Below, piece by piece: positions 6,180 through 44,996 of a stretch of 44,996 bases of DNA; the stretch's first letter is position 1; each line of letters opens with the position of its first letter. A program made the translations under genes and the position numbers. The notes under the pieces were generated by a model. That model made no database searches, was not told the origin of the DNA, and saw nothing but the letters and a program-made list of their open reading frames with translations. The stretch lies in the sequence record PZ789432.1; one strand, written 5' to 3'. This stretch comes from a phage.

Positions 6180-6320
6180 CCGTCGGAGACGGAAAGAAAG
6201 GGAAGATAAAGGATATAAAAGGAAGTAATAGGTATTAAAGGTTATATAGGTTTACCTAGGAATACCTATTACCTTCTTCCTTCCTCTTATTACTACTTAA
6301 AGGAAGGGCAGACCTAAGTT

Positions 6321-6740: not shown

Positions 6741-8728
6741 TGGCTATTATTAATAACATCCCGTGCCCTGCCTGTCAAAAGAATGGACATGATATTACTG
6801 GCAACCATCTTATGATATTTGAGGATGGCGCTGGTTACTGTAACCGTGGTCACTTCCATGATAATGGTAAGCCTTATTACCATAAGCCAGAGGGTGGTAT
6901 CGAGATAACCGAATTGCCTATTACTGGCAATATCAAATATACACCTTCTCAATTCAAAGAAATGGAGAAGGAAGGGAAGATAAGCGACCCTAAGCTACGC
7001 GCCATCGCACTTGGTGGTATGCGTATGAAAGATCGTTGGGAGGTCATGAATGAGCAAGAAAGGGCAGACCAAGAAGCAGAGTGGAAGCTTGATGTTGAAT
7101 GGTTCCTCACGCTTAAGCGTAAGAACCTTGTATCCCGTCACATTCGAGGTGACATCGCAGCAATGTACGATGTGCGCGTTGGACACGATGAAGAGGGAAG
7201 AGTCAACCGTCACTATTATCCACGATATGAAAAGGGTGTGCTTGTTGGAGCAAAATGCCGGACGTTGCCGAAGGATTTTAAGTTCGGACACCTAGGTAAA
7301 CTCTTTGGTATGCAAGACCTTTTCGGTATGAACACTTTGTCTCACGTGTTAGACAAGGGGAGACGAAAGGATTGCTTGCTTATTGTAGGCGGTGAACTTG
7401 ATGCACTAGCAGCGCAGCAGATGCTCCTTGATTCTGCCAAGGGTACTAAGTGGGAAGGCCAGCCATACCATGTATGGTCTGTCAACAAAGGCGAGTCTTG
7501 TCTTGAAGAGATAGTGCAAAACCGTGAGCATATCGCCCAATTCAAGAAGATTATATGGGGTTTTGATGGAGATGAGGTAGGGCAGAAGCAGAATCAGCAA
7601 GCGGCTCGCCTGTTTCCTGGCAAATCCTATATCCTTGAATACCCCTCTGGTTGCAAAGATGCTAACAAGGCATTGATGGCTGGCAAGGCTAAAGAGTTTG
7701 TAGATGCATGGTTTAATGCCAAGTCATCTGATGAAGTCTTTGGTAGCCAGATTAAATCTATCGCATCTCAAAGGGATAAGCTCAAGGCTGCACGTCCAGA
7801 GCAAGGACTATCATGGCCTTGGCCTAAGCTGAACAAGGTCACGCTAGGTATTCGTAAGAACCAACTTATCATTGTAGGCGCAGGCTCTGGTGTAGGTAAG
7901 ACTGAGTTCCTTCGTGAAGTAGTTAAGCACCTCATTGAAGAACACGGTGAATCTGTAGGCATCATTTCTACAGAAGACCCGATGGTCAAGGTGTCCCGTG
8001 CTTTTATCGGCAAGTGGATTGATAAGCGCATTGAGTTACCGCCAACCAACGACCCGAAAGAAGATGGATACCGTGAGGTGTTCGACTACACCGAGGAAGA
8101 GGCTAACGCCGCCATTGATTATGTAGCTGATACAGGTAAGCTGTTTGTAGCTGACCTAGAGGGTGACTATTCGATGGAAAAGGTAGAGCAAACTTGCCTA
8201 GAGTTTGAGGCTATGGGCATTTCTAATATCATCATTGATAACTTAACGGGGATTAAATTAGATGAGCGTGCTTTTGGTGGGAAGGTTGGTGCACTTGATG
8301 AATGCGTCAAGCGGATTGGTACTATCAAAGACCGACACCCGGTTACTATATTCCTTGTATCACACCTTACACGTCCTCCGGCAAACCGTACCCAACACGA
8401 AGAAGGTGGCGAGGTTATCCTTTCTGACTTCCGAGGCTCAGGCGCTATCGGATTCTGGGCATCTTACGCCTTGGGGATTGAGCGTAATACAAGAGCTGAA
8501 ACGCTTGACGAAAGGACTACCACGTACATCTCATGTGTCAAAGACCGCGACCAAGGAATATTTTCCGGTACTCGTATAATGCTTAAAGGTGATATTGCTA
8601 CTGGTCGATTACGTGAACCAGAGCAAAGATCTCGACCGTTTGATACTGGTGCTCCAAAAGAACAAACTGTACCAGAAGAAGTAGTGGATAAAGGAGGATT
8701 TATTGCTGACGAAGTTGAAGAGTTTTGA
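6740..8728 (+). CDS. DNA primase/helicase (T7 gp4-like)
   Basis: 662 aa; N-terminal zinc ribbon CPACQ...CNRGH; Walker A VGAGSGVGKTEF; acidic C-terminus ending EEF. Confidence 0.93.
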   Translation: MAIINNIPCPACQKNGHDITGNHLMIFEDGAGYCNRGHFHDNGKPYYHKPEGGIEITELPITGNIKYTPSQFKEMEKEGKISDPKLRAIALGGMRMKDRWEVMNEQERADQEAEWKLDVEWFLTLKRKNLVSRHIRGDIAAMYDVRVGHDEEGRVNRHYYPRYEKGVLVGAKCRTLPKDFKFGHLGKLFGMQDLFGMNTLSHVLDKGRRKDCLLIVGGELDALAAQQMLLDSAKGTKWEGQPYHVWSVNKGESCLEEIVQNREHIAQFKKIIWGFDGDEVGQKQNQQAARLFPGKSYILEYPSGCKDANKALMAGKAKEFVDAWFNAKSSDEVFGSQIKSIASQRDKLKAARPEQGLSWPWPKLNKVTLGIRKNQLIIVGAGSGVGKTEFLREVVKHLIEEHGESVGIISTEDPMVKVSRAFIGKWIDKRIELPPTNDPKEDGYREVFDYTEEEANAAIDYVADTGKLFVADLEGDYSMEKVEQTCLEFEAMGISNIIIDNLTGIKLDERAFGGKVGALDECVKRIGTIKDRHPVTIFLVSHLTRPPANRTQHEEGGEVILSDFRGSGAIGFWASYALGIERNTRAETLDERTTTYISCVKDRDQGIFSGTRIMLKGDIATGRLREPEQRSRPFDTGAPKEQTVPEEVVDKGGFIADEVEEF

Positions 8729-9191
8729 GGCAGCAGGATATACCATCAAGGAGGATGGTACTATCCTTAACCCTAAAGGTGTAATACTTAAACCGAGCCA
8801 ATCAGGAAGGAAATTAAAGTATTTATATGTAAGTTGGAGACATCAAGGAAGAAGAGTAACAGAGCTTGTACACAGATTGGTTGCTAAGAAGTACATACCC
8901 AACCCACACAGTTTACCAGAAATTCATCATAAAGACTTTAACCCTCTTAATTGTCATAAAGACAATCTTGAATGGACAGATGGTAAGACTAATTGTGAGT
9001 ATAGTTATGCAAGGGTAGAAGCTGCACTTGCACGTCATGCTACTTTATTGTCACCTGATGGCATTAAGTACGACATATTTAATGTTCGTAAATTCTGCCG
9101 CGAACATGGCCTCAATCCACCTAGTGTATTTGAGGTGCTTAGTGGTAAACGGAAGTCACATAAAGGGTGGACTATTTACCGGACACTATAG
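8703..9191 (+). CDS. HNH homing endonuclease
   Basis: 162 aa; EIHHKDFNPLNCHKDNLEW HNH motif. No in-frame ATG; starts at TTG 8703 six nt after AAGGAGG, inside the last 26 nt of the helicase gene. Confidence 0.8.
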   Translation: MLTKLKSFEAAGYTIKEDGTILNPKGVILKPSQSGRKLKYLYVSWRHQGRRVTELVHRLVAKKYIPNPHSLPEIHHKDFNPLNCHKDNLEWTDGKTNCEYSYARVEAALARHATLLSPDGIKYDIFNVRKFCREHGLNPPSVFEVLSGKRKSHKGWTIYRTL

Positions 9192-9196
9192 AAGAG
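9174..9196 (+). promoter_or_regulatory. phage RNAP promoter (atttaccggacactatagaagag)
   Basis: Consensus match; +1 G at 9191; overlaps the HNH stop codon. Confidence 0.75.
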
Positions 9197-9225
9197 ACAA
9201 CCTTTGACGATGAACAGGAGTTTTA

Positions 9226-10703: not shown

Positions 10704-10908
10704 ATTAAGCAAGGTTTGCTCTTGCGGTAAAGGCTATCGCAGTCGTATTGATGGTAAGTGTGGACATTGTAGGTCTAAGAAAGAGGCTGCTTTGTTTTAC
10801 AAATACCACAATGAACTCTCCTATAACTACCCTCATCTAACACCTAATTCTTTATTAGGACTTGGTTATAGGGCTAAATACTTTGGAGCAATCTATGAAA
10901 TCAATTGA
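10690..10908 (+). CDS. hypothetical zinc-ribbon protein (72 aa)
   Basis: ORF track 10663..10908; ATG 10690 preferred (GAGG 6 nt upstream); CSCGKG...CGHC motif. Confidence 0.5.
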   Translation: MKTIKLSKVCSCGKGYRSRIDGKCGHCRSKKEAALFYKYHNELSYNYPHLTPNSLLGLGYRAKYFGAIYEIN

Positions 10909-11380
10909 TTGGAAGAAGGAAGCGGAAGGGCGCATCCTAGTTATGGACGCCGAGGCGAAAGGTCTACTTGATGCTATACGCTATGGTCATCGTGAAGACG
11001 TGCATATCATCTGCTGTATGGACCTGTTGACTACAGAGGAGTTTCTCTTCTTCGACCCGTATGAGATGCGTGACCCTGAAGCAAGAGAACGCCTGAAGGA
11101 ATGGGAAGGTCATCAAGATGGTGACTTGGTTGATGGTGTTAACTTCCTGAAGCATTGTGAAGCTATTGTGTCACAGAACTTCCTAGGGTATGACGGACTT
11201 CTCTTTGAGAAAGCATTCCCTGATATTTGGAAGGGCTTTAACTATACCGAGAAGCGCGGTAAGGGCAGACTCCGTGCTGACCTGTGTCCGGTGCGAGTCA
11301 TGGATACGCTGGTGATGAGTCGCCTGTTAAACCCAGATAAGACGCCTTCCTCCGCAAGCATATGCCAAAGGTATGGGTAA
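10895..11380 (+). CDS. DNA polymerase (Pol I family), fragment 1 of 4: 3'-5' exonuclease domain; frame-disrupted
   Basis: ORF track 10862..11380 (TTG), first ATG 10895; Exo motifs ILVMDAEAKGL and NFLGYDGLLFEKAF; VMDTLVMSRLL parallels T7 gp5 CIDTLVLSRLI. Homology continues in another frame. Confidence 0.85.
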   Translation: MKSIDWKKEAEGRILVMDAEAKGLLDAIRYGHREDVHIICCMDLLTTEEFLFFDPYEMRDPEARERLKEWEGHQDGDLVDGVNFLKHCEAIVSQNFLGYDGLLFEKAFPDIWKGFNYTEKRGKGRLRADLCPVRVMDTLVMSRLLNPDKTPSSASICQRYG

Positions 11381-11786
11381 CGTCGCCCCTCACTCAATTG
11401 AGGCGCACGGCATCCGTATAGGCCGCTATAAACCGGAGAACGAGGACTGGTCTAAACTAACTGACCACATGGTTCACCGTGTACGTGAGGACGTGGCGAT
11501 TGGTCGTGACTTGTTCCTCTGGCTCTTTAACGGGGAATGGATGGAGCATAAACGCCGTGGCGTGAATAAACGCACGGGCCTAGGCATTGAGACAGCCTTC
11601 CACATGGAGTCCATTGTGGCGCTGGAGATGAGCCGTCAGGCCGAGCGGGGGTTCCGTCTGGACATCGACAAGGCTTTGGCCCGATGCGAAGAATTGGACG
11701 CTAAGATTGATGAGACAGTCGCAGCGTTCCGCCCTCACATGCCTATGCGTATCAAGTCTAAACCTTTTAAACCGGAAGAAAAGTAA
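11373..11786 (+). CDS. DNA polymerase, fragment 2 of 4; frame-disrupted
   Basis: HSIEAHGIRIGRYK parallels T7 gp5 HALEAWGYRLGEMK; the frame is open upstream from 11331, so the shift lies near 11335..11372. Confidence 0.8.
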   Translation: MGNVAPHSIEAHGIRIGRYKPENEDWSKLTDHMVHRVREDVAIGRDLFLWLFNGEWMEHKRRGVNKRTGLGIETAFHMESIVALEMSRQAERGFRLDIDKALARCEELDAKIDETVAAFRPHMPMRIKSKPFKPEEK

Positions 11787-12445
11787 TGAAGTATGCCAAC
11801 GCGCAAATGAGTATGGAGCTAGCAACAATATACCTACTGTCCTTGACCCCTCACACTTTCTTCATGCCGAGAGACGAGGAGATCGCAAGACAGTATGGAG
11901 AGCTTGTCACTACTAAGTCTGGTGATTGGTCGGCTAGTGTTAAGAAAGACTTTCCTCACCTTAGAGGAAACCGTAATGACACGCCAAGCATCAAGTGGAT
12001 TGGCGCTTACTCGCCTGTTACTTTCGAAGAGATTCCCTTGGGTAACAGGGATACAGTTAAGCAAGTGCTCTATGATTATGGATGGAAAGGTGTTGAATTT
12101 AACGATACCGAGCAAGCGCATCTCGATGAGTACGGAGTGTTACCCAAACCTTGGAGTGGTAAGATAAATGAAAAGTCCCTCACTTTATGGCAAGAAAGAG
12201 CCGCACGTGAAGGTAAAACAGTACCTGATTGGTGCTTGGGTATCGCTGCATGGTACATACTCGTATCCCGTCGTGGTCAGATACTCAACCGTGGTGACGT
12301 TGAAGCCTTCAACGAGAAGGGGAACGTGGCCCTCGCAGGCTGGTGTACGAAAGTGTCGCGGCCTTGTACCTGTAGCATTCAACAAGGAGCTAGGAATCAA
12401 TGCGCAGCAATACTACGAGAGGTACGGATGTTGGCCTACGTCTGA
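11786..12445 (+). CDS. DNA polymerase, fragment 3 of 4; frame-disrupted
   Basis: Back in the frame of fragment 1; polymerase-like over its N-terminal two thirds. Confidence 0.7.
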   Translation: MKYANAQMSMELATIYLLSLTPHTFFMPRDEEIARQYGELVTTKSGDWSASVKKDFPHLRGNRNDTPSIKWIGAYSPVTFEEIPLGNRDTVKQVLYDYGWKGVEFNDTEQAHLDEYGVLPKPWSGKINEKSLTLWQERAAREGKTVPDWCLGIAAWYILVSRRGQILNRGDVEAFNEKGNVALAGWCTKVSRPCTCSIQQGARNQCAAILREVRMLAYV

Positions 12446-13448
12446 CAAAGATGACGGAGAGTGGCGTGTTCCAGCTGTTGCTATTAGTATTGGCACTTCT
12501 ACGTTCCGTATGCGTCATCGTAACGTGGTTAATATTCCTGCCCGTGGCTTGTATCCTTTACGTGATTTATTCATAGCAGGGAAAGGCAAGCTAATCCTTG
12601 GTTGTGACGGTGCAGGTCTTGAACTGCGTGTCCTGTCTCACTTCATGAATGACCCTGAGTACCAAGAGATTGTACTGCACGGTGATATTCATACGCATAA
12701 CCAGATGAAGGCTGGTCTTCCTAAGCGTGATATGGCGAAGACGTTTATATACGCCTTCCTCTATGGTTCTGGTATAGCCAACCTTGCAGCAGTCTGCGGT
12801 GTTACTGAGGAAGAAATGAAGGAAGTTGTGGCAAGATTCGAGATTGAACTACCGTCTCTTGCACGTCTTCGTGAGAATGTTATCGCACAAGGTAACAAGT
12901 TTGGCTACCTGCAAGCACCTGATGGGCATTGGGGTCGCATCCGCATGTCTGGTGGTGAACTTAAAGAGCACACGATGCTTAACGTATTACTCCAGATGAC
13001 TGGCTCTTTGTGTATGAAATATGCATTAGTCAAGGCATTTGCAGTAATGCGCAAGGAAGGTGTAGCTTTGGATGCTATGGGAAATCCTTGTGGTGTGGCT
13101 AACGTGCATGATGAAATCCAGATGGAAGTTCCTGAAGAGGAGGTCTTGTATCTTAACTACGACCTACCTTTCACCTTAGATGGGTTCGAAACAGAGAAGG
13201 CTGCTGTGAAAGCAGTTTTCGATGCAGAGGAGAAACGTGTTCATGTGGATTCTGAAGGACGTATGTGGTCTGCTGCAAACCTCGTTAGCGTTGATGCTGA
13301 TGCTGGTGTATTGCATTGCCAGCGCCGTTATCACCGTGCAGGTCATATCATTGCCGACGCCATGACTTGGGCAGGGCAGTATCTGAAGATGCGTTGCCCG
13401 ATGGCAGGAGAATATAAGATTGGCGCAAGCTGGAAGGAAACACACTGA
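12168..13448 (+). CDS. DNA polymerase, fragment 4 of 4: palm/fingers; frame-disrupted
   Basis: Motif A GCDGAGLELRVLSHF, TSTFRMRHRNVVNIP (T7 TGRATHAFPNLAQIP), KTFIYAFLYG, VHDEIQ. Reliable homology starts near 12430; the first ~260 nt of this ORF overlap fragment 3. Confidence 0.85.
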   Translation: MKSPSLYGKKEPHVKVKQYLIGAWVSLHGTYSYPVVVRYSTVVTLKPSTRRGTWPSQAGVRKCRGLVPVAFNKELGINAQQYYERYGCWPTSDKDDGEWRVPAVAISIGTSTFRMRHRNVVNIPARGLYPLRDLFIAGKGKLILGCDGAGLELRVLSHFMNDPEYQEIVLHGDIHTHNQMKAGLPKRDMAKTFIYAFLYGSGIANLAAVCGVTEEEMKEVVARFEIELPSLARLRENVIAQGNKFGYLQAPDGHWGRIRMSGGELKEHTMLNVLLQMTGSLCMKYALVKAFAVMRKEGVALDAMGNPCGVANVHDEIQMEVPEEEVLYLNYDLPFTLDGFETEKAAVKAVFDAEEKRVHVDSEGRMWSAANLVSVDADAGVLHCQRRYHRAGHIIADAMTWAGQYLKMRCPMAGEYKIGASWKETH

Positions 13449-16163: not shown

Positions 16164-16469
16164 ATGCCGACTATTAAATCTCGTTTAGTAGCAGACTATG
16201 TGTATGGTCGTGACTTAAAGTTAATGCAAGATTACTTTAAAGTAATCATCCTGCTGGATGGAGAAGTGTTTCACACTAAAACATTCACCCTTCCTGAATT
16301 GTTTGATTTAGGTTATTGGGGTTATACATATCAGGCCATAGCAGACAAGGTGCTACTCAGTGTATTAGAGGAGTGGCCTACATGCGACCAAACTTCGACT
16401 TCGGAGCTACAGTATCGGAAGACAATAACCTGTTGCTGTGGCCAACTGAAGGTAATAGAATCGCTTTAA
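16164..16469 (+). CDS. hypothetical protein (101 aa)
   Basis: ORF track; SD GGAG; 3' end overlaps the exonuclease start. Confidence 0.55.
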   Translation: MPTIKSRLVADYVYGRDLKLMQDYFKVIILLDGEVFHTKTFTLPELFDLGYWGYTYQAIADKVLLSVLEEWPTCDQTSTSELQYRKTITCCCGQLKVIESL

Positions 16470-17026
16470 TAGATGCTGACATGTTACCCTACATCGTAGG
16501 TTATACAATCAGTGACATGACTTATGTACGAGCCACAACTCGTGTTAAGTCAGGACAAGTCCCATCAATCAAAGATACACCTGAGTGTAAGCAAGCGTGT
16601 GACCGTGTGAACTCCTTGCTCAACTCTTGGGTGTATGCAGCAGAGTGTGATGCAGCTAAGTTATTCATGACGAAATCAGAAGCTAACTTCCGTGTTCGCC
16701 TAGCCTTCACCAAGCCTTACAAGGGTCAACGTAAGACCGAGAAGCCTCCGTTCTTCTATGAATTGCGAGAGCATCTCTTAGAGGTTCATGGTGCAATCTT
16801 GGCAGATGGAGAAGAGGCTGATGACCTCATGAGCATTGCACAATGGGACAGCCACCGCCGCTTCCAGCAAGCTACAGGTAACGAGTTCCCTATCGGTAGT
16901 CCAGAGCATAAAGCATTCTCTGATACTTGCATCGTTTCCTTAGATAAGGATTTGATGATTGTTCCCGGTTGGCATCTTCAGCCGGGTCAAGAGAAGAAAT
17001 GGGTTAGAGCCTATGGGTTGGCTTGA
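16382..17026 (+). CDS. 5'-3' exonuclease (T7 gp6-like), fragment 1 of 2; frame-disrupted
   Basis: ORF track 16316..17026 (non-ATG); ATG 16382 after GAGGAG; IALIDADMLPY, EEADDLMSIAQ and IVSLDKDLMIVPGW parallel T7 gp6. Confidence 0.85.
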   Translation: MRPNFDFGATVSEDNNLLLWPTEGNRIALIDADMLPYIVGYTISDMTYVRATTRVKSGQVPSIKDTPECKQACDRVNSLLNSWVYAAECDAAKLFMTKSEANFRVRLAFTKPYKGQRKTEKPPFFYELREHLLEVHGAILADGEEADDLMSIAQWDSHRRFQQATGNEFPIGSPEHKAFSDTCIVSLDKDLMIVPGWHLQPGQEKKWVRAYGLA

Positions 17027-17411
17027 GCTACGCCGTAAGGCTAATGGTCAGGTTAAAGACCTTAAAGGTGCTGGCCTCATGTTTCATTATGCACAGATGA
17101 TTATCGGTGATGATATTGATAACTATGCTGGCATACCTGGACGTGGTGCTAAATACGCCTATGATCTTCTCAAAGATTGTAAGACAGAGAAAGAGTTGTA
17201 CATGGCAGTGCTTGGTGCTTACAAGGCTAAGTTCGGACATGGACAAGTTAAGATTAAGAATTACCGAGGTGGTTATCGTATCGGCAAGGCTTTTGACCTG
17301 ATGCTCGAATGTGGTCGCCTAGCGCACATGGCAAGATTCAAAGGTGATATATGGCGAGCCGATAAGAACCCAATCTTGTGGGGAGATGATGCGGAATGGT
17401 TAGCAAATTAA
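16959..17411 (+). CDS. 5'-3' exonuclease, fragment 2 of 2; frame-disrupted
   Basis: MFHYAQMIIGDDIDNYAGIPGRG parallels T7 gp6 HLFQTIKGDITDGYSGIAGWG; the frame changes near 16990..17026. Confidence 0.8.
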   Translation: MFPVGIFSRVKRRNGLEPMGWLELRRKANGQVKDLKGAGLMFHYAQMIIGDDIDNYAGIPGRGAKYAYDLLKDCKTEKELYMAVLGAYKAKFGHGQVKIKNYRGGYRIGKAFDLMLECGRLAHMARFKGDIWRADKNPILWGDDAEWLAN

Positions 17412-17806
17412 AATCATCGGAGGTAGCAGCTTATAAGAGGGATTTGCTAGAGAAGCAAGGGTGGAAGTGCCCACTATGTGGCGGCAGTCTCAAGGCTGTT
17501 ACTCCTATAAACCGTGTACTTGACCATGACCATGAGACAGGATTCTGCCGTGCTGTTGTATGCCGAGGCTGCAATGGTGCAGAAGGAAAGATTAAGGGTG
17601 TTATCTCTGGTTACGGTAAGGCTGGTAACAACCGTTACTTCCAGCTTCAATGGTTAGAGCGACTATATGAATACTGGAAGTTACATAGTACGCCTCAGAC
17701 AGATAAGTTATATCACAAACATCAAACGGAGGCAGAGAAGCGCGAGGCTAAGAACCGTAAGGCACGCCTTGCTTATGCAAGAAAGAAGGAGGTTAAAGTT
17801 GGGTAA
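17396..17806 (+). CDS. endonuclease VII-like Holliday junction resolvase
   Basis: 136 aa; GWKCPLCGG...LDHDHETGFCRAVVCRGCNGAEGKIKG parallels T4 endo VII (KCLICQ...HLDHDHELNG...VRGLLCNLCNAAEGQ). Confidence 0.8.
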   Translation: MVSKLKSSEVAAYKRDLLEKQGWKCPLCGGSLKAVTPINRVLDHDHETGFCRAVVCRGCNGAEGKIKGVISGYGKAGNNRYFQLQWLERLYEYWKLHSTPQTDKLYHKHQTEAEKREAKNRKARLAYARKKEVKVG

Positions 17807-21527: not shown

Positions 21528-23078
21528 ATGAAACAGAGCACAGATTTGGAGTATGGAGGTAAGCGGTCTAAGATACCTAAGCTATGGGAGAAGTTCTCCA
21601 CTAAACGTAGCTCTTTCCTTGATAGGGCGAAGCATTACTCCAAATTAACCTTGCCCTATCTGATGAATGACAAAGGTGATAACGAGACTTCGCAGAATGG
21701 ATGGCAAGGTGTAGGTGCTCAGGCAACTAATCATCTAGCCAACAAGCTAGCGCAAGTACTATTCCCTGCACAGCGTTCCTTCTTCCGTGTAGACTTAACT
21801 GCACAAGGTGAGAAGGTTCTTAATCAGCGTGGCCTGAAGAAGACAGAGCTAGCTACCATCTTCGCTCAAGTGGAAACACGGGCAATGAAAGAGTTAGAGC
21901 AACGTCAATTCCGGCCTGCTGTAGTAGAAGCATTTAAGCATCTTATTGTTGCTGGCAGCTGTATGCTATACAAGCCGAGCAAAGGTGCAATCAGTGCTAT
22001 CCCAATGCATCACTACGTAGTTAACCGTGACACCAATGGCGACCTGTTAGACATTATCTTACTGCAAGAGAAAGCCTTACGCACCTTTGACCCAGCTACA
22101 CGTGCTGTAGTAGAGGTTGGCCTGAAAGGTAAGAAGTGCAAGGAAGATGACAGCATTAAGCTGTACACACATGCTAAGTATCTTGGTGATGGATTTTGGG
22201 AACTCAAGCAGTCTGCTGATGATATCCCTGTGGGTAAGGTGAGTAAAATCAAATCAGAAAAGCTACCTTTCATCCCATTAACTTGGAAGCGAAGCTATGG
22301 TGAGGATTGGGGTCGCCCTCTTGCAGAGGATTACTCCGGTGATTTATTCGTTATCCAATTCTTATCTGAAGCGGTTGCCCGTGGTGCTGCGCTGATGGCA
22401 GATATCAAGTACCTGATTCGTCCTGGTGCTCAAACTGATGTTGACCACTTTGTTAACTCTGGCACTGGTGAGGTTGTCACTGGTGTAGAAGAAGACATCC
22501 ATATTGTACAGTTAGGTAAGTACGCAGACCTCACACCTATTAGCGCGGTTCTAGAGGTATACACTCGCCGTATCGGTGTTGTCTTCATGATGGAGACAAT
22601 GACACGCCGTGACGCCGAACGTGTTACTGCTGTAGAAATCCAGCGAGATGCGTTAGAGATTGAGCAGAACATGGGTGGTGTATACTCCCTCTTTGCTACT
22701 ACTATGCAATCGCCAGTAGCGATGTGGGGTCTGCTGGAGGCAGGGGAGTCCTTCACTAGTGACTTAGTGGACCCTGTGATTATCACAGGTATTGAAGCTT
22801 TAGGACGCATGGCTGAGTTGGATAAACTGGCTAACTTTGCTCAGTATATGTCACTGCCATTACAATGGCCTGAGCCTGTCCTAGCTGCTGTGAAATGGCC
22901 TGACTATATGGATTGGGTGCGTGGTCAAATCTCTGCTGAACTGCCGTTCCTTAAATCGGCTGAAGAGATGGCACAAGAACAGGAAGCACAGATGCAAGCA
23001 CAGCAAGCACAGATGCTTGAAGAAGGTGTGGCTAAGGCCGTGCCGGGTGTAATTCAACAAGAACTTAAGGAGGCGTAA
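21528..23078 (+). CDS. portal (head-to-tail connector) protein
   Basis: 516 aa; position before scaffold and capsid, and size, match T7 gp8-like portal. Confidence 0.88.
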   Translation: MKQSTDLEYGGKRSKIPKLWEKFSTKRSSFLDRAKHYSKLTLPYLMNDKGDNETSQNGWQGVGAQATNHLANKLAQVLFPAQRSFFRVDLTAQGEKVLNQRGLKKTELATIFAQVETRAMKELEQRQFRPAVVEAFKHLIVAGSCMLYKPSKGAISAIPMHHYVVNRDTNGDLLDIILLQEKALRTFDPATRAVVEVGLKGKKCKEDDSIKLYTHAKYLGDGFWELKQSADDIPVGKVSKIKSEKLPFIPLTWKRSYGEDWGRPLAEDYSGDLFVIQFLSEAVARGAALMADIKYLIRPGAQTDVDHFVNSGTGEVVTGVEEDIHIVQLGKYADLTPISAVLEVYTRRIGVVFMMETMTRRDAERVTAVEIQRDALEIEQNMGGVYSLFATTMQSPVAMWGLLEAGESFTSDLVDPVIITGIEALGRMAELDKLANFAQYMSLPLQWPEPVLAAVKWPDYMDWVRGQISAELPFLKSAEEMAQEQEAQMQAQQAQMLEEGVAKAVPGVIQQELKEA

Positions 23079-23773
23079 TGTCTTTCTCATTTACTGAACC
23101 GTCAACCACTCACCCTACTGCTGAAGAGGGTCCGGTAGAAACCAAGGAGGTAACAACTGATGCTGCTACTACTGATACTCCTGCTGACGCTGGCACTGCT
23201 GTACAAGATGACAATGCTGGTGCACAACCTACTGAAGACACCGGAGGAGAAGCTTCTGGACAGCCTTCAGAAAAAGGAGACAATGGCGGAGAGAATGGTG
23301 AACCTAAGCCAGATGATACCGCGACCGACACTGAGGAAGTGCAATACTTCTTCGGAGAACATGAAGTAACAGTAGACATCCCACAGGATGTAACTGACAG
23401 CCTTAAAGAGAAAGGCATTGATGCCAAGCAGGTTGCCAAGGAACTCTATTCCAAAGGTGGCAAGTTTGAACTGTCAGATGCAACCAAGCAGAAATTGTAT
23501 GATGCTTTTGGCAAGTTTGCGGTAGATGCTTACCTGTCAGGTCTAAAGGCTCAAAATGAAGCCTTCTTCCTGAAAGAAGCCAACGCAGCTAAAGAGTTGG
23601 AAGCAGCTAACACCCAACGCTTCTCTGATGTTTCTAAGGAAATTGGTGGCGAAGAAGGTTGGTCCCGTCTTGAGGAGTGGGCACTTGAAGCGCTGTCTGA
23701 TGACGAACTCAACGGCATTCAATGCGGTGATGGAATCTGGCAACCAGTACCTCCAGCAGTACGCTGTGCGTGA
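23078..23773 (+). CDS. capsid scaffolding protein, fragment 1 of 2; frame-disrupted
   Basis: SD AAGGAGG; acidic, Ala/Thr/Glu-rich N-terminus; reading frame is lost near 23712. Confidence 0.75.
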   Translation: MSFSFTEPSTTHPTAEEGPVETKEVTTDAATTDTPADAGTAVQDDNAGAQPTEDTGGEASGQPSEKGDNGGENGEPKPDDTATDTEEVQYFFGEHEVTVDIPQDVTDSLKEKGIDAKQVAKELYSKGGKFELSDATKQKLYDAFGKFAVDAYLSGLKAQNEAFFLKEANAAKELEAANTQRFSDVSKEIGGEEGWSRLEEWALEALSDDELNGIQCGDGIWQPVPPAVRCA

Positions 23774-23999
23774 ACTGGAAAGTCGCCGGAAGGCTGCACA
23801 GGGTGATGACAAACCAAACCTGATTGAACCCTCTGCACCTGCTGCTGCGTCTGAAGATAATGGCCCACTCTCTCGTGAGCAGTACCTGCGTGAGATGATG
23901 ACTCTTAGCTCTCGCTTCGGTACAGACAAGAAAGCTGCTGCTGAGTATCAGGCTAAACTGGATGCTCGCCGTCGTGCTGGTATGGCTCGCGGTCTGTAA
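23628..23999 (+). CDS. capsid scaffolding protein, fragment 2 of 2; frame-disrupted
   Basis: Removing one G from aacGGcattc at ~23711 joins ...ALSDDELN to AFNAVMESGNQYLQQYAV... giving a ~307-aa protein. Confidence 0.7.
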   Translation: MFLRKLVAKKVGPVLRSGHLKRCLMTNSTAFNAVMESGNQYLQQYAVRELESRRKAAQGDDKPNLIEPSAPAAASEDNGPLSREQYLREMMTLSSRFGTDKKAAAEYQAKLDARRRAGMARGL

Positions 24000-24027: not shown

Positions 24028-24076
24028 AGAAAATGTCTCCCTAAATTATCAATTTGATTTATAAGGAGGTTTATTA

Positions 24077-35200: not shown

Positions 35201-35534
35201 TAAAGGGTTGGCCTTTGGTGCAATGGGTATGATGAGTACAACTGCTGTATTTAGTCTAGGTGGAGATTTCTTAGGTGGCCTAGGTGTTCTACCTTCTGAG
35301 TTAGTACAATCCCGTTATGAGGCTGGCTTTCAGACTAAGGGTTTGATAGACCAAATACCACTAGTAGGTGTTGGTCAAGATGCATATCGTTTAGCAGATT
35401 CTATAACTAAATACGCAGAGGGCGATACAGAAGGTGTAGATGTGGCACGTAGGGCTTTACGCTTAGTGCCTCTAGCTAATGTAATAGGAATCCAGAACGC
35501 ATTGCGTTATGGCTTAGATGAACTGGAGGATTAA
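32211..35534 (+). CDS. large internal virion (core) protein, T7 gp16-like by position
   Basis: 1107 aa; SD GGAGG; last of three internal proteins between tail tube and tail adaptor genes. Confidence 0.75.
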   Translation: MEQDIKTNWAGYVQSTPEPFSIEAAPVSAPTIRQRNELQEQVLEAKADADILGAVGAAFQNEWLAFGGKRWYDRATADFTPQPDFEIQPEQREALRFKYGTDMMQTITEGVRSEDELNFRIQNADEDLERNKRIAQAGWVGSVATIGAAVLDPVGWVASIPTGGAAKVGLVGRAVRGAIAAGVSNAAIESILVQGDMTRDLDDIMVALGSGMAMGGVIGAVARGRATKLSEQGDDRAASIVRSADAGDRYVRAVADDSIGAMRVKGEEVLTEGAFDISSKGEDLLKTLQREGNAIDMTPRRWAGTLSALGTVVHSSHDTSVRGLGARLFESPQGLGMQKASASLMQNTNLNRLKSADMNRFNDGFDLWLKENNINPVAGHTNSHYVQQYNEKVWEAVRIGMDESTPKSIRMAAEGQQAMYREALALRKRSGEAGFENIKADNKYMPDIFDTMKARRQFDRIGKDIDKEDIIELFSRAYQNGARKIPKEVADEIARAQVNRVAGCHLDRTAMSFEKAMSGQTKAEYEALMRKAGFSDEEIEKMVEALDNKETRDNISNRAKMSLGLDVTQEYNGIRMRDFMNTNVEELTDNYMKEAAGGAALARQGFSTYQAALNAIDLVERNARNAAKDTKAHAQFEAESAKIRQSEPDYKRAQEKIEELKKRLKLKEKDEAAGLAIDEEIRQMREGLRLIMGKSIDSNPQDLSTKMLRRGRDITGVLRLGQMGFAQLGELANFMGEFGIAATTMALGKQFRFTSKALRNGDGFFRDKNLAEVERMVGYIGEDNWLTTKGARPDEFGDVTTVRGMMAHFDQSMNSIRRAQTNLSLFRMAQGSLERMTNRQIALSFIDHLEGKKIIPQKKLEELGLTQEFMTNLQKHYDANSKGSGLLGFDTMPYAMGETLANAIRRKSGLIIQRNFIGDEGIWMNKALGKTFAQLKSFSLVSGEKQFGRGIRHDKIGLAKKTAYGFALGSIVYAAKAYVNSIGREDQDEYLEEKLSPKGLAFGAMGMMSTTAVFSLGGDFLGGLGVLPSELVQSRYEAGFQTKGLIDQIPLVGVGQDAYRLADSITKYAEGDTEGVDVARRALRLVPLANVIGIQNALRYGLDELED

Positions 35535-36497
35535 TGAGTTATACTTTCACAGAACATATAGCCAACGGTACGCAAGTAACCTATCCCTTTAGCTTTGCTG
35601 GTAGGGATAAAGGTTATCTTCGTGCCTCAGATGTGATAGTGGAGATCTCTTCAAGGTAACACTTGGATTGAGGTTACATCTGGCTGGCAACTAACTGGCA
35701 CGCACCAGATTACTTTTGATGTAGCACCAGTTGCAGGTTTGAAGTTCCGTATTCGAAGGGAAGTACAAAAGGAGTATCCATACGCTGAGTTTGACCGTGG
35801 TGTTACCTTGGATATGAAGTCTTTAAATGGTTCTTTCATTCATATACTGGAGATTACACAGGAGTTACTTGACGGGTTTTATCCAGAAGGATACTTCATT
35901 AAACAGAATGTAAGCTGGGGCGGCAATAAGATTACTGATTTGGCTGATGGCACAAATCCGGGAGATGCAGTAAACAAAGGGCAGCTTGATGCCATTGACA
36001 AGAAGCATACAGATTGGAATGCCAAACAGGACATTGAGATTGCTGGCCTTAAGGCTGGTATGACTTCTGGTATTGCGCACAGAACTGTTCCTTGGTACAC
36101 GATAGCCCAAGGTGGTGAGATTTCCGTAAAACCACCTTATGAATTTCAAGATGCACTAGTTTTCCTTAATGGGGTATTGCAGCACCAAATTGTAGGCGCA
36201 TACTCTATAAGCAACAACACTATCACTTTCGCAGAGTCGCTTGTGGCGGGTACAGAGGTGTATGTGCTGATTGGTAGTCGTGTGGCTACATCTGAACCTA
36301 ATATTCAGTTAGAGTTGAACTTTGACTTAGTAGAAGGCCAACAAGTAGTACAGATTGGCTCTGCATTTAAGTACATTGAGGTCTACCTTGATGGATTATT
36401 ACAACCTAAACTTGCTTATCAGGTAGACGGTGACATTGTTACTTTCTCAGAGGGAGTGCCAGAATGCCGGATGACTGCTAAGATTATCACAGCATAA
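35534..36497 (+). CDS. tail fiber/tailspike adaptor (T7 gp17 N-terminal-domain-like); frame-disrupted
   Basis: ATG 35534 gives MSYTFTEHIANGTQVTYPFSFAGRDKGYLRASDVIVEISSR* (ends 35659). Homology continues in another frame from ~35640 (NTWIEVTSGWQLTG...; ORF track 35739..36497). One indel near 35648..35656 restores ~321 aa. Confidence 0.7.
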
Positions 36498-38902: not shown

Positions 38903-39037
38903 AAGGCCCAGATAATAAGAGAAAATAATAGGTAATATATAGGTTAACCTAGGTTATATAGGTATGCCTTAGTATGGGTGTACTCCTGTACACCCTATTC
39001 CTTACTACCTTACTATATTTACATAATAGGAGAGACA

Positions 39038-39628: not shown

Positions 39629-39985
39629 TGCTTAACAAATACTTCAAGCGCCGTGAGTTCGCTTGCCGTTGTGGGTGCGGTACATCCACTGTTGATGCTG
39701 AATTACTACAGGTAGTCACAGATGTGCGTGAGCACTTTGGTTCGTACCTGTAGTAATCACTTCGGGGCATCGCTGTGCTAAGCACAATGCCAACGTAGGA
39801 GGAGCTAAGAAGGTTCCATGCATCTTACTGGTAAGGCTGCTGACATTAAGGTATCTAGGTGTCTGGTACCAATCGGAGGTACGTACAGTACCTCTGCTAA
39901 TAAATACCCTGATAAGTATGGCATTGGTGCTTATACCTACTTTTACCCATATCGACGTTACGAGACAACGAGTGCACGATGGTAA
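39628..39985 (+). pseudogene. endolysin, zinc peptidase M15-type, with about four frame disruptions in this sequence
   Basis: Successive frames give MLNKYFKRREFACRCGCG...VREHFGS / PVVITSGHRCAKHNANVGGAKK / SMHLTGKAADIKV...GIGAYTY / FTHIDV / ...SARW*, together the M15 hallmark. Each break is at a short G or T run. Confidence 0.75.
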
Positions 39986-40094
39986 GATGTGTTGAATGGT
40001 GTGAACGCATGGTTGCCAAAGCATCCAGAGGATGGCAACTATGATGACTGGAAGAACTACTCTGAATTGTTAGCTCAATGGAAAGGGAGATGCA

Positions 40095-40190
40095 ATGAAA
40101 AAGCTGTTTAAGTCTAAGAAGGTTGTAGGTGCACTGGTTGCACTGGTTATTGCACTTGTTTCTGTAGGTCTTGGCGTAGACCTTGGCTGA
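40095..40190 (+). CDS. hypothetical small membrane protein (31 aa)
   Basis: ATG 40095 after AAGGGAG; MKKLFKSKKVVGALVALVIALVSVGLGVDLG. Confidence 0.35.
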   Translation: MKKLFKSKKVVGALVALVIALVSVGLGVDLG

Positions 40191-40324
40191 AGGTACGGAA
40201 GGTTCCTGTCACTGACGTGGTCTGCCAAGTGATCACCTGTGAATAAGGTGCTTGAAGTGGTGGCAGGTCTTATTGGCCTGCTGCTTGCCGCTAAGAAGAA
40301 GCAAGGAAGAAAAGGAGGCACAAA

Positions 40325-40426
40325 GTGAAGCGAATCATGCTAGCGACAATCCTGCTGATTGGTTCGCTGACCACTTCCGGGTGTCAGACAGGCGTTACCA
40401 GAGAGTCCAATGGTGAAACCGTCTGA
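40325..40426 (+). CDS. small lipoprotein-like ORF (candidate o-spanin-like)
   Basis: GTG 40325 six nt after AGGAGG (or ATG 40337); MLATILLIGSLTTSGCQTG has a signal peptide with lipobox-like TSGC. No intact i-spanin ORF is visible. Confidence 0.35.
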   Translation: MKRIMLATILLIGSLTTSGCQTGVTRESNGETV

Positions 40427-40667: not shown

Positions 40668-41792
40668 ATGGCTAAATTAACCAAACCTAAGACTGAAGGA
40701 ATCTTGCATAAAGGACAATCTTTGTATGAGTACCTTGATGCGAGAGTTTTAACATCAAAGCCGTTTGGTGCTGCAGGTGACGCCACTACTGATGATACGG
40801 AGGTTATAGCTGCTTCACTAAACTCTCAAAAAGCTGTCACAGTCTCAGATGGTGTATTCTCTAGCTCTGGTATTAATAGTAATTACTGTAACTTAGACGG
40901 CAGGGGTAGTGGAGTACTAAGTCACCGTTCAAGTACAGGTAACTACTTAGTATTTAACAATCTACGTGCAGGTCGCTTAAGTAATATTACGGTAGAAAGT
41001 AATAAGGCGACTGATACAACTCGGGGACAGCAGGTATCTCTTGCTGGTGGAAGTGATGTTACTGTAAGTGACGTTAACTTCTCAAACGTTAAAGGTACTG
41101 GTTTCAGTTTAATAGCATACCCTAATGGTGCGCCACCTAATGGGCTTATGATTAAAGGTATTCGAGGTAGCTACTCCGGCTATGCTACTAATAAGGCAGC
41201 CGGATGCGTACTTGCTGACTCCTCAGTTAACTCCCTAATAGATAACGTCATTGCTAAGAACTACCCTCAGTTCGGAGCCGTAGAGTTGAAAGGTACAGCC
41301 AGTTATAACATAGTCAGTAATGTTATAGGGACAGATTGCCAGCATGTAACTTACAACGGCACTGAAGGGCCAATAGCTCCTTCTAATAACCTTATCAAGG
41401 GTGTGATGGCTAATAACCCTAAGTATGCAGCGGTTGTTGCAGGCAAAGGAAGTACGAACTTAATCTCAGACGTGCTCGTAGATTACTCAACTTCTGATGC
41501 TAGGCAGGCTCATGGTGTTACCGTAGAGGGGTCTGATACCGTCATAAATAATGTGCTTATGTCAGGATGTGATGGTACTAACTCTTTAGGACAAAGTCAG
41601 ACTGCTACAATTGCGCGCTTTATAGGTACAGCTAATAACAACTATGCGTCTGTATTTCCTAGCTACAGTGCTACAGGTGTTATTACTTTCGAATCCGGCT
41701 CTACCCGTAACTTCGTAGAGGTAAAGCACCCTGGCAGGAGAAATGACCTTCTCAGTTCTGCTAGTACTATTGACAGGTGCAGCTACTATTGA
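40668..41792 (+). CDS. tailspike 1 (beta-helix polysaccharide depolymerase, K5-lyase-like), N-terminal fragment; frame-disrupted
   Basis: ORF track 40608..41792 (TTG); ATG 40668 after AGGAG; beta-helix-like repeats; frame lost near 41775. Confidence 0.8.
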   Translation: MAKLTKPKTEGILHKGQSLYEYLDARVLTSKPFGAAGDATTDDTEVIAASLNSQKAVTVSDGVFSSSGINSNYCNLDGRGSGVLSHRSSTGNYLVFNNLRAGRLSNITVESNKATDTTRGQQVSLAGGSDVTVSDVNFSNVKGTGFSLIAYPNGAPPNGLMIKGIRGSYSGYATNKAAGCVLADSSVNSLIDNVIAKNYPQFGAVELKGTASYNIVSNVIGTDCQHVTYNGTEGPIAPSNNLIKGVMANNPKYAAVVAGKGSTNLISDVLVDYSTSDARQAHGVTVEGSDTVINNVLMSGCDGTNSLGQSQTATIARFIGTANNNYASVFPSYSATGVITFESGSTRNFVEVKHPGRRNDLLSSASTIDRCSYY

Positions 41793-42567
41793 TGGCACTA
41801 ATAATAGTAACGTAGTGCACGCACCTGCCTTAGGGCAGTACATCGGTAGTATGTCAGGTAGGTTCGAATGGCGGATTAAGTCCATGTCACTCCCTTCAGG
41901 CGTTCTTACTTCTGCTGATAAGTACAGAATGCTTGGGGATGGTGCTGTGTCATTAGCTGTAGGTGGGGGCACTTCTTCTCAAGTTCGCCTATTTACTTCT
42001 GATGGTACTTCTCGGACAGTGTCCCTCACCAACGGTAACGTGCGTCTTTCTACCAGTAGCGCAGGCTATTTGCAGTTAGGTGCTGATGCAATGACCCCAG
42101 ATAGTACTGGTACATACGCATTAGGTTCCGCCAGTCGAGCATGGTCTGGCGGTTTTACTCAAGCAGCATTCACTGTTACCTCAGATGCTCGGTGTAAAAC
42201 AGAACCTCTTACTATCTCAGATGCCTTACTGGATGCTTGGTCTGAAGTTGACTTTGTGCAGTTTCAGTATTTGGATCGTGTTGAGGAGAAAGGTGCAGAC
42301 TCAGCTAGATGGCACTTTGGCATCATCGCTCAGCGAGCTAAGGAGGCTTTCGAACGTCACGGTATAGATGCACATCGCTACGGCTTCTTGTGCTTCGACA
42401 GTTGGGAGGATGTATACGAGGAAGATGCAAATGGCTCTCGTAAACTGATTACACCAGCAGGTTCCCGCTATGGTATTCGTTACGAGGAAGTACTGATATT
42501 AGAGGCTGCGTTGATGCGGCGGACTATTAAGCGTATGCAGGAAGCACTAGTTGCCATTCCTAAGTAA
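41743..42567 (+). CDS. tailspike 1, C-terminal fragment with intramolecular chaperone (peptidase S74-like) domain; frame-disrupted
   Basis: C-terminus ...DARCKTEPLTISDALLDAWSEVDFVQFQYLD...ARWHFGIIAQ...YGFLCFD... parallels the autocleaving chaperone domain of K1F endosialidase (...GERKTEPVVFDDAFLDAWGDV...ARIHFGVIAQ...YAVLCYD). Joined length ~633 aa. Confidence 0.8.
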   Translation: MTFSVLLVLLTGAATIDGTNNSNVVHAPALGQYIGSMSGRFEWRIKSMSLPSGVLTSADKYRMLGDGAVSLAVGGGTSSQVRLFTSDGTSRTVSLTNGNVRLSTSSAGYLQLGADAMTPDSTGTYALGSASRAWSGGFTQAAFTVTSDARCKTEPLTISDALLDAWSEVDFVQFQYLDRVEEKGADSARWHFGIIAQRAKEAFERHGIDAHRYGFLCFDSWEDVYEEDANGSRKLITPAGSRYGIRYEEVLILEAALMRRTIKRMQEALVAIPK

Positions 42568-42652: not shown

Positions 42653-44365
42653 ATGCTTCAAAGATTAAGTGCTTACTTGGTGAAGTACAAGAGTAAACTA
42701 ACAGGTACTATTGAGCGCCTGCTATCTGATAAACTATCGGATACAATAGACGTTGCGGATTTTGGAGTTAATCCCTCTTCTAATGACAACAGGCAAGCCC
42801 TTCAAGCTGCATTCAATGCGGTCAGATTGCTAGGCGGTGGTACTGTATCAGTCACTAAAGCTGGCGAATATAAACTCAGTGGTACTGTTGAGATATTTGC
42901 TAATACACACTTCAAGGTTGCTAAAGGTGTAACATTTGTACGTGACTACGAAACAGGAGATACGCTATTCAGATTATCACAAGGGCAAGCTAGTAATGTA
43001 ACAGTCAGTGGAGGTATCTATGAAGGCAATGGTCACACTAAGGGAGATACACCTTTTGTAGTATTTGCATCTACTAGTAATAATGATTTGAAGTTTGAAG
43101 GCATAACAGTTAACAATGTAGTGGACTACCACGCCATAGATTTAGCAGATTGGAACAACGTAGTTATTCGTGATTGTAAATTCCTAGGGTTTAAGAATAC
43201 AGGCAGTCGTAACTTCTCAGAGGCTATACAGTTAGACCCAGGTCTTATTACAGTTGGTCACTATGTACAGTCAAGCGGTATGCTGGTGGAGAATTGCTAT
43301 GCTGGTCCAAACCCAGAATCAGGGTTTGGGGGTTATGGTGCACTAATCGGAAATCACGCCTCAGCTTATGGTGTACAGGACAACAATATCCGTATCTTGA
43401 ATTGCACTACAGATGGTGCTCTCTTTGCAGGTGTACGTGTATTTAACTGGAAAAACTGGACAGTACGTGGTTGTACCTTTAGAAACTCTAATGCAAGAGG
43501 TGTTCATGTTACACCTGTCTCCTCTCAAACTAAACCGCAAGGAACTCGACAAGGTAGTGTTGTAGATTGTACTTTTGATGGCGTAAGAACACCAGTGCTA
43601 ATTGCTGCACCATCTTGGCCTTTTACAGATATTAGTGACATTTGGCATGACCATATTGAAATTTCTAATAATACTATGATCCTCACAGAGGATGTATCCT
43701 ATGGTGTAGATGCAAGGTGGTGTAAGAATTTAATTGTAAAAGGTAACACTGGTTCTGGCGGCTTAGGGTTAATCGGTTTACGCTTTGGAACAAAGTACCA
43801 CATCGAAGGTAATACTTGGGAAAACGGAAGAGGTAGTGGGATTTGGTTAGGTGAGTCTGATGCTACTACATTCATTGGTACTGGCTTATCTGGAGAAGGT
43901 ATACTTAGTCGTAATATCCTCTCTAAATTAGGGCAATATGGTATTCATGTAAACTGCAAGGCTGGCGGTCTAGTGATTAAAGCTAATAATATGAAGGAAG
44001 TATCTACAGCTGAAGCAGGTAGGCACTTCATTAGCATAGACACAGGAGCTAACAACATCCTAGTAGAAGGTAATATTGGAGTAGATGGAGAAAGCCCTAA
44101 CAAGCCAAGCTTGGGTATTCGTGTTACTTCTTCTTGTTCCAATATTAAACTCATTGGCAATGATTGCTATGGTACACAGGCGCCTCAGAATAACCAAGGG
44201 GTTGGTTCTAGTACGGTGATTGTTTATGGACTAAATGGCAATCCTACAACTTTAGGCGTAGGTGCACCTGTTGGCTCTTTAGCAACTGATATCAATGGGT
44301 CTGGTGGTAGTACATTGTACGTTAAAGAATCTGGTACATCTGCTCAAGGTTGGGTTGCAAAGTAG
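42653..44365 (+). CDS. tailspike 2 (pectate-lyase-fold beta-helix depolymerase)
   Basis: 570 aa; SD AAGGAGG; N-terminal DVADFGVNPSSNDNRQALQAAFNA...GGGTV typical of pectate-lyase-type tailspikes, followed by beta-helix-like repeats. Confidence 0.85.
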   Translation: MLQRLSAYLVKYKSKLTGTIERLLSDKLSDTIDVADFGVNPSSNDNRQALQAAFNAVRLLGGGTVSVTKAGEYKLSGTVEIFANTHFKVAKGVTFVRDYETGDTLFRLSQGQASNVTVSGGIYEGNGHTKGDTPFVVFASTSNNDLKFEGITVNNVVDYHAIDLADWNNVVIRDCKFLGFKNTGSRNFSEAIQLDPGLITVGHYVQSSGMLVENCYAGPNPESGFGGYGALIGNHASAYGVQDNNIRILNCTTDGALFAGVRVFNWKNWTVRGCTFRNSNARGVHVTPVSSQTKPQGTRQGSVVDCTFDGVRTPVLIAAPSWPFTDISDIWHDHIEISNNTMILTEDVSYGVDARWCKNLIVKGNTGSGGLGLIGLRFGTKYHIEGNTWENGRGSGIWLGESDATTFIGTGLSGEGILSRNILSKLGQYGIHVNCKAGGLVIKANNMKEVSTAEAGRHFISIDTGANNILVEGNIGVDGESPNKPSLGIRVTSSCSNIKLIGNDCYGTQAPQNNQGVGSSTVIVYGLNGNPTTLGVGAPVGSLATDINGSGGSTLYVKESGTSAQGWVAK

Positions 44366-44741: not shown

Positions 44742-44996
44742 GCCCTCGCCGGGTTGCCCCCATATGGGGTAGATCGGCGGTTGACCTAGGAATTGGGCTG
44801 GGCTGGTCCGTCTTCGACGGGTGGGCGAGGGCTTGCCGAGGTCTGCTCTTAGTGGCTGCACAAGGAGAACGCCTAGGAAGCGCTAGGGCACGCCTTAGTA
44901 TTGGACAAGGTGATTGCCTTAGTGAAGCCTCTTAGTGCATTCCTTAGGTCATTCAGGGCGTTTATGAGGGATTGACAGGGTGGATGGGTGTGGGCT
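44742..44996. repeat. right direct terminal repeat
   Basis: Same orientation copy of 1..257; preceded by extra ctcgccctcgccctcgcc units that the truncated left copy does not show. Confidence 0.85.

Follow-up and report, generated by a model that had tools for sequence, protein, structure and literature searches.

The 5'-3' exonuclease gene of the phage genome in record PZ789432.1 is written in two successive reading frames, and a single additional T explains the break. In this report we call the whole 44,996-nt stretch of that record the window, and all positions count from its first letter. The gene occupies positions 16382..17411 on the + strand and is the ortholog of K1-5 gene 20 and an analog of T7 gene 6. 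The extra T is very probably an artefact of base calling, of assembly or of some other step in making the record, and no feature of the phage, whose true gene would be one uninterrupted ORF of 342 aa. The picture that best accommodates our observations is a healthy K1-5-like genome with a single-copy FEN-family exonuclease gene, to which the T would have been added while the record was produced.

Results

The exonuclease gene and its two frames

According to a megablast search against GenBank phages, the window is the complete genome of a K1-5/K1E-like podophage (Autographiviridae, Molineuxvirinae, Vectrevirus), and as a whole it is ~96-97% identical to vB-Eco-KMB47 (KMB47 below), EEc4, VEc3 and similar phages. 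Positions 122-255 and 44863-44996 both match the terminal region of KMB47 (44087-44219), which points to a complete genome with a direct terminal repeat or with ends that overlap through assembly.

The exonuclease region shows 95-99.5% nucleotide identity to annotated 'exonuclease' CDSs in 99 phage records. Upstream lies an intact, conserved 101-aa gene similar to K1-5 gene 19 (16164..16469, + strand; 97% aa identity to VEc3 gp23), whose ORF overlaps the exonuclease start by 88 nt; downstream, an intact gene with an endonuclease VII/HNH motif (17396..17806, + strand; 99.3% aa identity) overlaps the exonuclease stop by 16 nt. In identity, position and flanking genes the region thus agrees with the Vectrevirus exonuclease orthologs. 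The single ORF of ~342 codons found throughout that group is interrupted in the window by the +1 break at 17004/17005, and we attribute its absence to a sequence error.

The region measures 1030 nt in the window and 1029 nt (342 aa) in relatives. Frame A (16382..17026, + strand) comprises 208 authentic N-terminal codons followed by six aberrant ones (RAYGLA) and the stop codon TGA at 17024-17026. The ATG at 16382 is the true start of the gene, while the mechanical ORF call begins upstream, at TTG 16316. Frame B is the +1 frame with respect to frame A and extends without a stop from 16959 to the TAA at 17409-17411; its authentic part (17007..17411, + strand) supplies the C-terminal 134 codons and that TAA, and the encoded peptide is 99.3% identical to its counterpart in VEc3. 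This second half carries the H3TH/SAM-fold segment with the invariant residues D243 and D246 (GDDIDNYAGIPGRG).

The original prediction, of a single exonuclease gene broken by one frame change, is borne out by these data. The motifs that it assigned to different frames are indeed encoded there, IVSLDKDLMIVPGW in frame A and MFHYAQMIIGDDIDNYAGIPG in frame B, the two ORFs are consecutive halves of the 342-aa ORF, and the gene truly begins and ends at the outer coordinates that it gave, 16382 and 17411. It had put the joined length at ~343 aa; this fits a single gene, the actual length being 342 aa.

A profile comparison gives the same picture. Fragment A aligns with positions 97-273 of PHROG 107 'exonuclease' (E=1.9e-38) and fragment B with positions 277-378 (E=6.3e-29), while the intact KMB47 exonuclease covers positions 97-378 in one stretch. 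Judged from these sequence matches, such a two-frame arrangement of exonuclease halves lies far beyond chance.

The inserted T

The window reads TGGGTTAGAG where all aligned relatives read TGGGTAGAG. The difference is a TT at 17004..17005 (+ strand) at a place where every relative has a single T; one of the two bases is inserted, with a +1 shift as the result. Alignment to KMB47, 101101UKE1 and K1-5, and then to six full genomes, placed exactly one gap in the exonuclease gene, and across the six genomes the flanks of the insertion contain 0-2 substitutions within +/-25 nt. The wild-type junction, AAA TGG GTA GAG CCT ATG (K W V E P M), is changed in frame A of the window to TGG GTT AGA GCC TAT GGG TTG GCT TGA, which encodes the six aberrant residues and the stop. 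Since the extra T shifts the frame by +1, a literal reading of the record yields a truncated product of 214 aa and an orphan C-terminal ORF. Deleting one T yields a clean ORF of 342 codons, in which the junction peptide of the full-length exonuclease is KWVEPMGWLELR. A compensating second indel close to the site was considered and rejected, as the alignment contains only one gap and frame A stops at TGA 17024.

The gene is unsplit in relatives

In every annotated relative that we inspected, the exonuclease is a single 1029-nt CDS of 342 aa (gene 20 in K1-5), and the alignments to relatives proposed earlier as a check showed an uninterrupted 342-aa ORF in all those examined. Searched with tblastn, a 61-aa peptide spanning the junction was found in one piece and in one frame in all 177 matching phage records, which range from Escherichia phages to Rhizobium and Vibrio phages; the break is thus unique to the window among 178 sequences. 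Two separate ORFs conserved in relatives, the observation that would have spoken against a single gene, occurred in none of the 177 records. At greater distances, nearly all of the best 120 homolog clusters (35-97% identity) consist of proteins of 335-450 aa, in which a single polypeptide covers >=94% of the query. An exact-pattern scan with degenerate flanks returned no match for the inserted variant in IMG/VR, JGI metagenome contigs or GTDB genomes, and 12 matches for the intact variant in IMG/VR. Neither the 214-aa truncated product nor the 342-aa repaired product has an exact match in the protein and contig collections searched.

Once the T is deleted, hardly any of the differences from relatives change an amino acid, either before or after the shift: the comparison with K1-5 gives 43 synonymous to 3 non-synonymous changes over the gene, of which 20 and 1, respectively, lie downstream of the shift. 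The repaired protein is 97-99% identical to those of the relatives K1-5, K1E, VEc3 and KMB47. Genome-wide, 196 substitutions are private to the window, a number similar to that of other isolates, and 105 of the 139 private coding substitutions fall at codon position 3. The synonymous bias and the excess at third positions argue that the underlying genome is under normal purifying selection, without decay.

Enzyme family, fold and catalytic residues

Sequence profiles place the protein in a nuclease family at sub-threshold scores. Pfam PF02739 has no match and fragment A is without any Pfam family, while PF01367, with scores of 26.3 and 24.0 bits against a cut-off of 40 bits, matches fragment B below threshold (E=1.1e-5); the NCBIfam 5'-3' exonuclease models give weak scores, far under their cut-offs. 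A single-sequence phmmer search of the PDB returned no matches and a profile search of the PDB gave marginal matches to T5 FEN (E~0.04), with the H3TH segment aligning at the sequence level, so that a fold comparison was needed. Membership in the FEN superfamily accordingly rests on fold and motifs.

The AF2 model of an intact homolog with 97% identity (P0001; pLDDT 92.4) has the layout of the FEN superfamily, in which a PIN-like alpha/beta nuclease core precedes an H3TH DNA-binding segment. Its top 32 Foldseek matches in the PDB are all FEN-family nucleases (probability 1.00, E down to 1.4e-7), including plastid exonuclease 1, E. coli ExoIX, T5 FEN, mycobacterial FEN, T4 RNase H and FEN1. The target-normalised TM-scores of the significant matches range from 0.39 to 0.64, the top values of 0.58-0.64 being those of ExoIX.

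In an alignment of 22 sequences that includes T7 gp6, the acidic residues D31, D33, E145, D147, D148, D188 and D190, encoded in frame A, and D243 and D246, encoded in frame B, are invariant; they are probably equivalent to the metal sites of T5 FEN. The break sits within one compact predicted domain, in the beta-hairpin region that connects the DKD strand to the H3TH. It thereby parts the invariant metal-binding carboxylates, leaving seven of them in frame A, and D243, D246 and the H3TH in frame B. By analogy with T7 gp6 or T5 FEN, the repaired 342-aa product would act as a metal-dependent 5' nuclease, and its putative roles, taken from T7, are primer removal, recombination and host DNA breakdown.

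Private insertions in other genes

Using tblastn with VEc3 proteins and multi-genome alignments, we found at least eight further private insertions in other essential genes, seven of 1 nt and one of 4 nt, at sites where six references agree or nearly agree. In the DNA polymerase gene (10895..13448; 848 aa in relatives), four private insertions (+A at 11339, +T at 11784, +AGCT at 11901-11904 and +G at 12319) produce five frame segments; the six references agree at each of these sites. This broken polymerase is the case that the original prediction had mentioned as parallel to the exonuclease. The scaffolding protein gene (23078..23999) has a private +A at 23711 (CTCAACGG vs CTCACGG), and downstream of this frameshift the encoded protein is 100% identical to that of VEc3. 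The gene for a tail fiber/adaptor similar to K1-5 gene 37 (35534..36497; 320 aa) has a private +1 at 35644, which shifts the frame after codon 37, and the gene of the first tailspike (40668..42567; 632 aa in VEc3, 97% identity) has a private +A at 41775.

For the second tailspike ORF (42653..44365, 570 aa), the second tailspike/tail-fibre protein of VEc3 gives no match. This ORF is 1713 nt long, compared with 2436 nt for the K1-5 endosialidase gene, and the genes of EEc4, UKE1 and Sem2 at the same position likewise measure 1713 nt, which suggests that a receptor-binding module was exchanged and that the phage would therefore recognise a different host capsule.

About 700 nt at ~39740..40425 differ from all six references by roughly 20 extra single bases and a few deletions, with 88-90% nucleotide identity there vs 96-97% elsewhere. 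These differences scramble the endolysin gene, a small ORF, a holin-like gene and an Rz-like gene, and the stretch looks like locally low-quality sequence. Private small indels in non-coding DNA, namely +TA at 459-460, -1 at 6191, +T at 6251, +A at 24030 (directly downstream of the promoter-like ATTTACTGGACACTATAGAAGGGAG and before the capsid gene) and -2 at 39030, fit the same error process.

Elsewhere in the genome, at 8678..9223, an insert of ~500 nt follows the primase/helicase gene and contains an ORF for an HNH endonuclease (8703..9191, 162 aa). The adjoining helicase has an alternative C-terminus of 16 aa (…GGFIADEVEEF), and a remnant of the original helicase 3' end, with an embedded phage promoter (ATTTACCGGACACTATAGAAGAG), is found at 9176-9223. 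This arrangement is typical of a free-standing homing endonuclease insertion.

The private coding indels of the window are nearly all insertions, which is an unusual error spectrum. They are not clearly tied to homopolymers, as ~6 of the 10 isolated events extend a neighbouring base, against ~44% expected by chance. A homopolymer-type error model (454, Ion Torrent, Nanopore) is not clearly supported, the inserted bases not lying preferentially in runs, and such an insertion-only, non-homopolymer spectrum implicates no particular sequencing platform. Comparable lesions are seen in related records. Sem2 (PV775413) has 11 private insertion events, ten of one base and one of three, and a fragmented annotation of the scaffold, capsid, tail tube B and internal virion protein. 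KMB47 (OR424385) is one T short at 34053 (GGGTTG vs GGGTTTG), which divides its large internal virion protein gene into two CDSs. The indels of KMB47 and Sem2 are probably errors of those records, and the private insertions of Sem2, being of the same kind as those of the window, show that such errors occur in records of the genus.

Discussion

The combination of a healthy substitution spectrum with numerous private insertions, most of them single bases, and with one locally very poor stretch looks like the outcome of uncorrected base-calling or assembly errors. The lesions cannot all be biological, because a phage whose DNA polymerase is broken four times cannot replicate; the genome as written could not be viable. 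For the exonuclease gene, we infer a technical cause of the insertion, and a programmed frameshift, a split gene or a decayed pseudogene are poorly supported.

The alternative that survives best, though we consider it unlikely, is that TT was truly in the sequenced molecule and inactivated the exonuclease, the phage being a defective or minority variant or a laboratory mutant propagated with help. The sequence as given does contain the insertion, and the absence of decay downstream of the shift is as compatible with a very recent event as with an error. A real mutation, however, would imply that the same genome also harbours eight or more further private frameshifts, four of which hit the DNA polymerase, together with scrambled lysis genes, and the TT is absent from all other records examined (177 records and three contig collections). 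Loss of the enzyme would also be costly: the exonuclease of T7 gene 6 is recorded, in the T7 record, as required for recombination and host DNA degradation. The wide conservation of the exonuclease family, one of seven families common to >29 Autographivirinae genomes (PMC4640515), likewise counts against a real inactivation.

A far less probable explanation is +1 ribosomal frameshifting, in which the ribosome would read GUU (Val, 17003-17005), skip A17006 at the rare codon AGA and continue with GAG to make the wild-type protein of 342 aa. A +1 shift at GUU-AGA-G restores the wild-type ...KWVEPMG... exactly, and AGA is rare in the intact genes of the window, with 3.2 per 1000 codons. Rare AGA/AGG codons promote +1 shifts in E. 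coli, as reportedly shown by, for example, Spanjaard and van Duin (1988). We hold it very doubtful, too, that a real T persists in a viable phage through +1 hungry-codon slippage at GUU-AGA-G (17003-17009), with the rare AGA stalling decoding. The site is conserved in 0 of the 177 relatives, the inserted variant had no matches in the three collections, known +1 motifs such as the CUU-UGA-C of the prfB type are absent from the site, and re-pairing of tRNA-Val on UUA would probably be poor. Moreover, AGA occurs 27 times in ordinary intact genes. An in-frame GTT-AGA was found nowhere else in the genome, an Rfam scan of the whole window gave no matches, and a literature search on recoding in SP6/K1-5-like exonucleases found nothing relevant. 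The contexts of the other private insertions are unrelated and hence do not point to a general recoding mechanism either; slippage here would amount at most to low-level phenotypic suppression, with no programmed signal.

The least credible reading is a true split into an N-terminal nuclease core and a C-terminal H3TH polypeptide that assemble in trans: frame B does offer possible starts after weak SD-like sequences (TTG 16959, after AAGGA, and ATG 17079), but a split is seen in no relative at any sampled evolutionary distance (177 records and the best 120 homolog clusters), the break would cut one compact predicted domain and part its invariant metal-binding residues, and the ORF overlap exists only through the 1-nt insertion, with 6 aberrant codons preceding the stop.

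With a sequence error as the preferred explanation, the main value of our analysis lies in quality control. Neither two exonuclease ORFs nor a pseudogene nor a recoding event should be annotated in PZ789432.1, and the genes of the DNA polymerase, scaffold, tail adaptor, tailspike and lysis proteins need the same correction. A genuine frameshift would mean either that a core gene of replication and recombination has suffered a lethal or strongly crippling lesion, or that +1 slippage occurs here, and the evidence makes both improbable.

Comparison with known systems

The closest counterparts of the window gene, K1-5 gene 20 (AAR90062), K1E gene 20, VEc3 gp24 and KMB47 WPK27941, occupy the same position, flanked by the gene 19-like ORF and the endonuclease VII gene, and unlike the gene in the window each of them is one ORF of 1029 nt.

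Known recoding sites of T7-like phages are conserved and yield two defined products. In T7, the -1 frameshift of gene 10A/10B and the possible gene 5.5-5.7 fusion of the T7 record likewise involve overlapping frames that need a ribosomal shift. The shift in the window differs from these sites in that it occurs in one record only, would be +1 and affects an enzyme that needs both halves.

The T7 gene 6 exonuclease (NP_041988) has the same role and neighbourhood in the T7-like replication module. Alignment to T7 gp6, which had been suggested as a check, reveals a genuine though remote likeness, with a BLASTP alignment (23% identity over 146 aa, E=4e-4) that crosses the break. The two proteins share the motifs YKxxRK, E(A/G)DD, SxDKD and GDxxDxYxGIxGxG; T7 gp6 has 300 aa vs 342 aa for the window protein, which has additional stretches, among them those near residues 55-75 and 200-230. 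Beyond phage T7, the predicted fold resembles those of T5 D15 FEN (1exn/5hml), ExoIX (3zd8-3zde), M. smegmatis FEN (6c33), T4 RNase H (1tfr) and the plastid exonuclease (9l55). Sequence similarity to these solved FEN structures is marginal, and in the model of the intact homolog extra beta-hairpins are inserted after the DKD motif, ahead of the H3TH.
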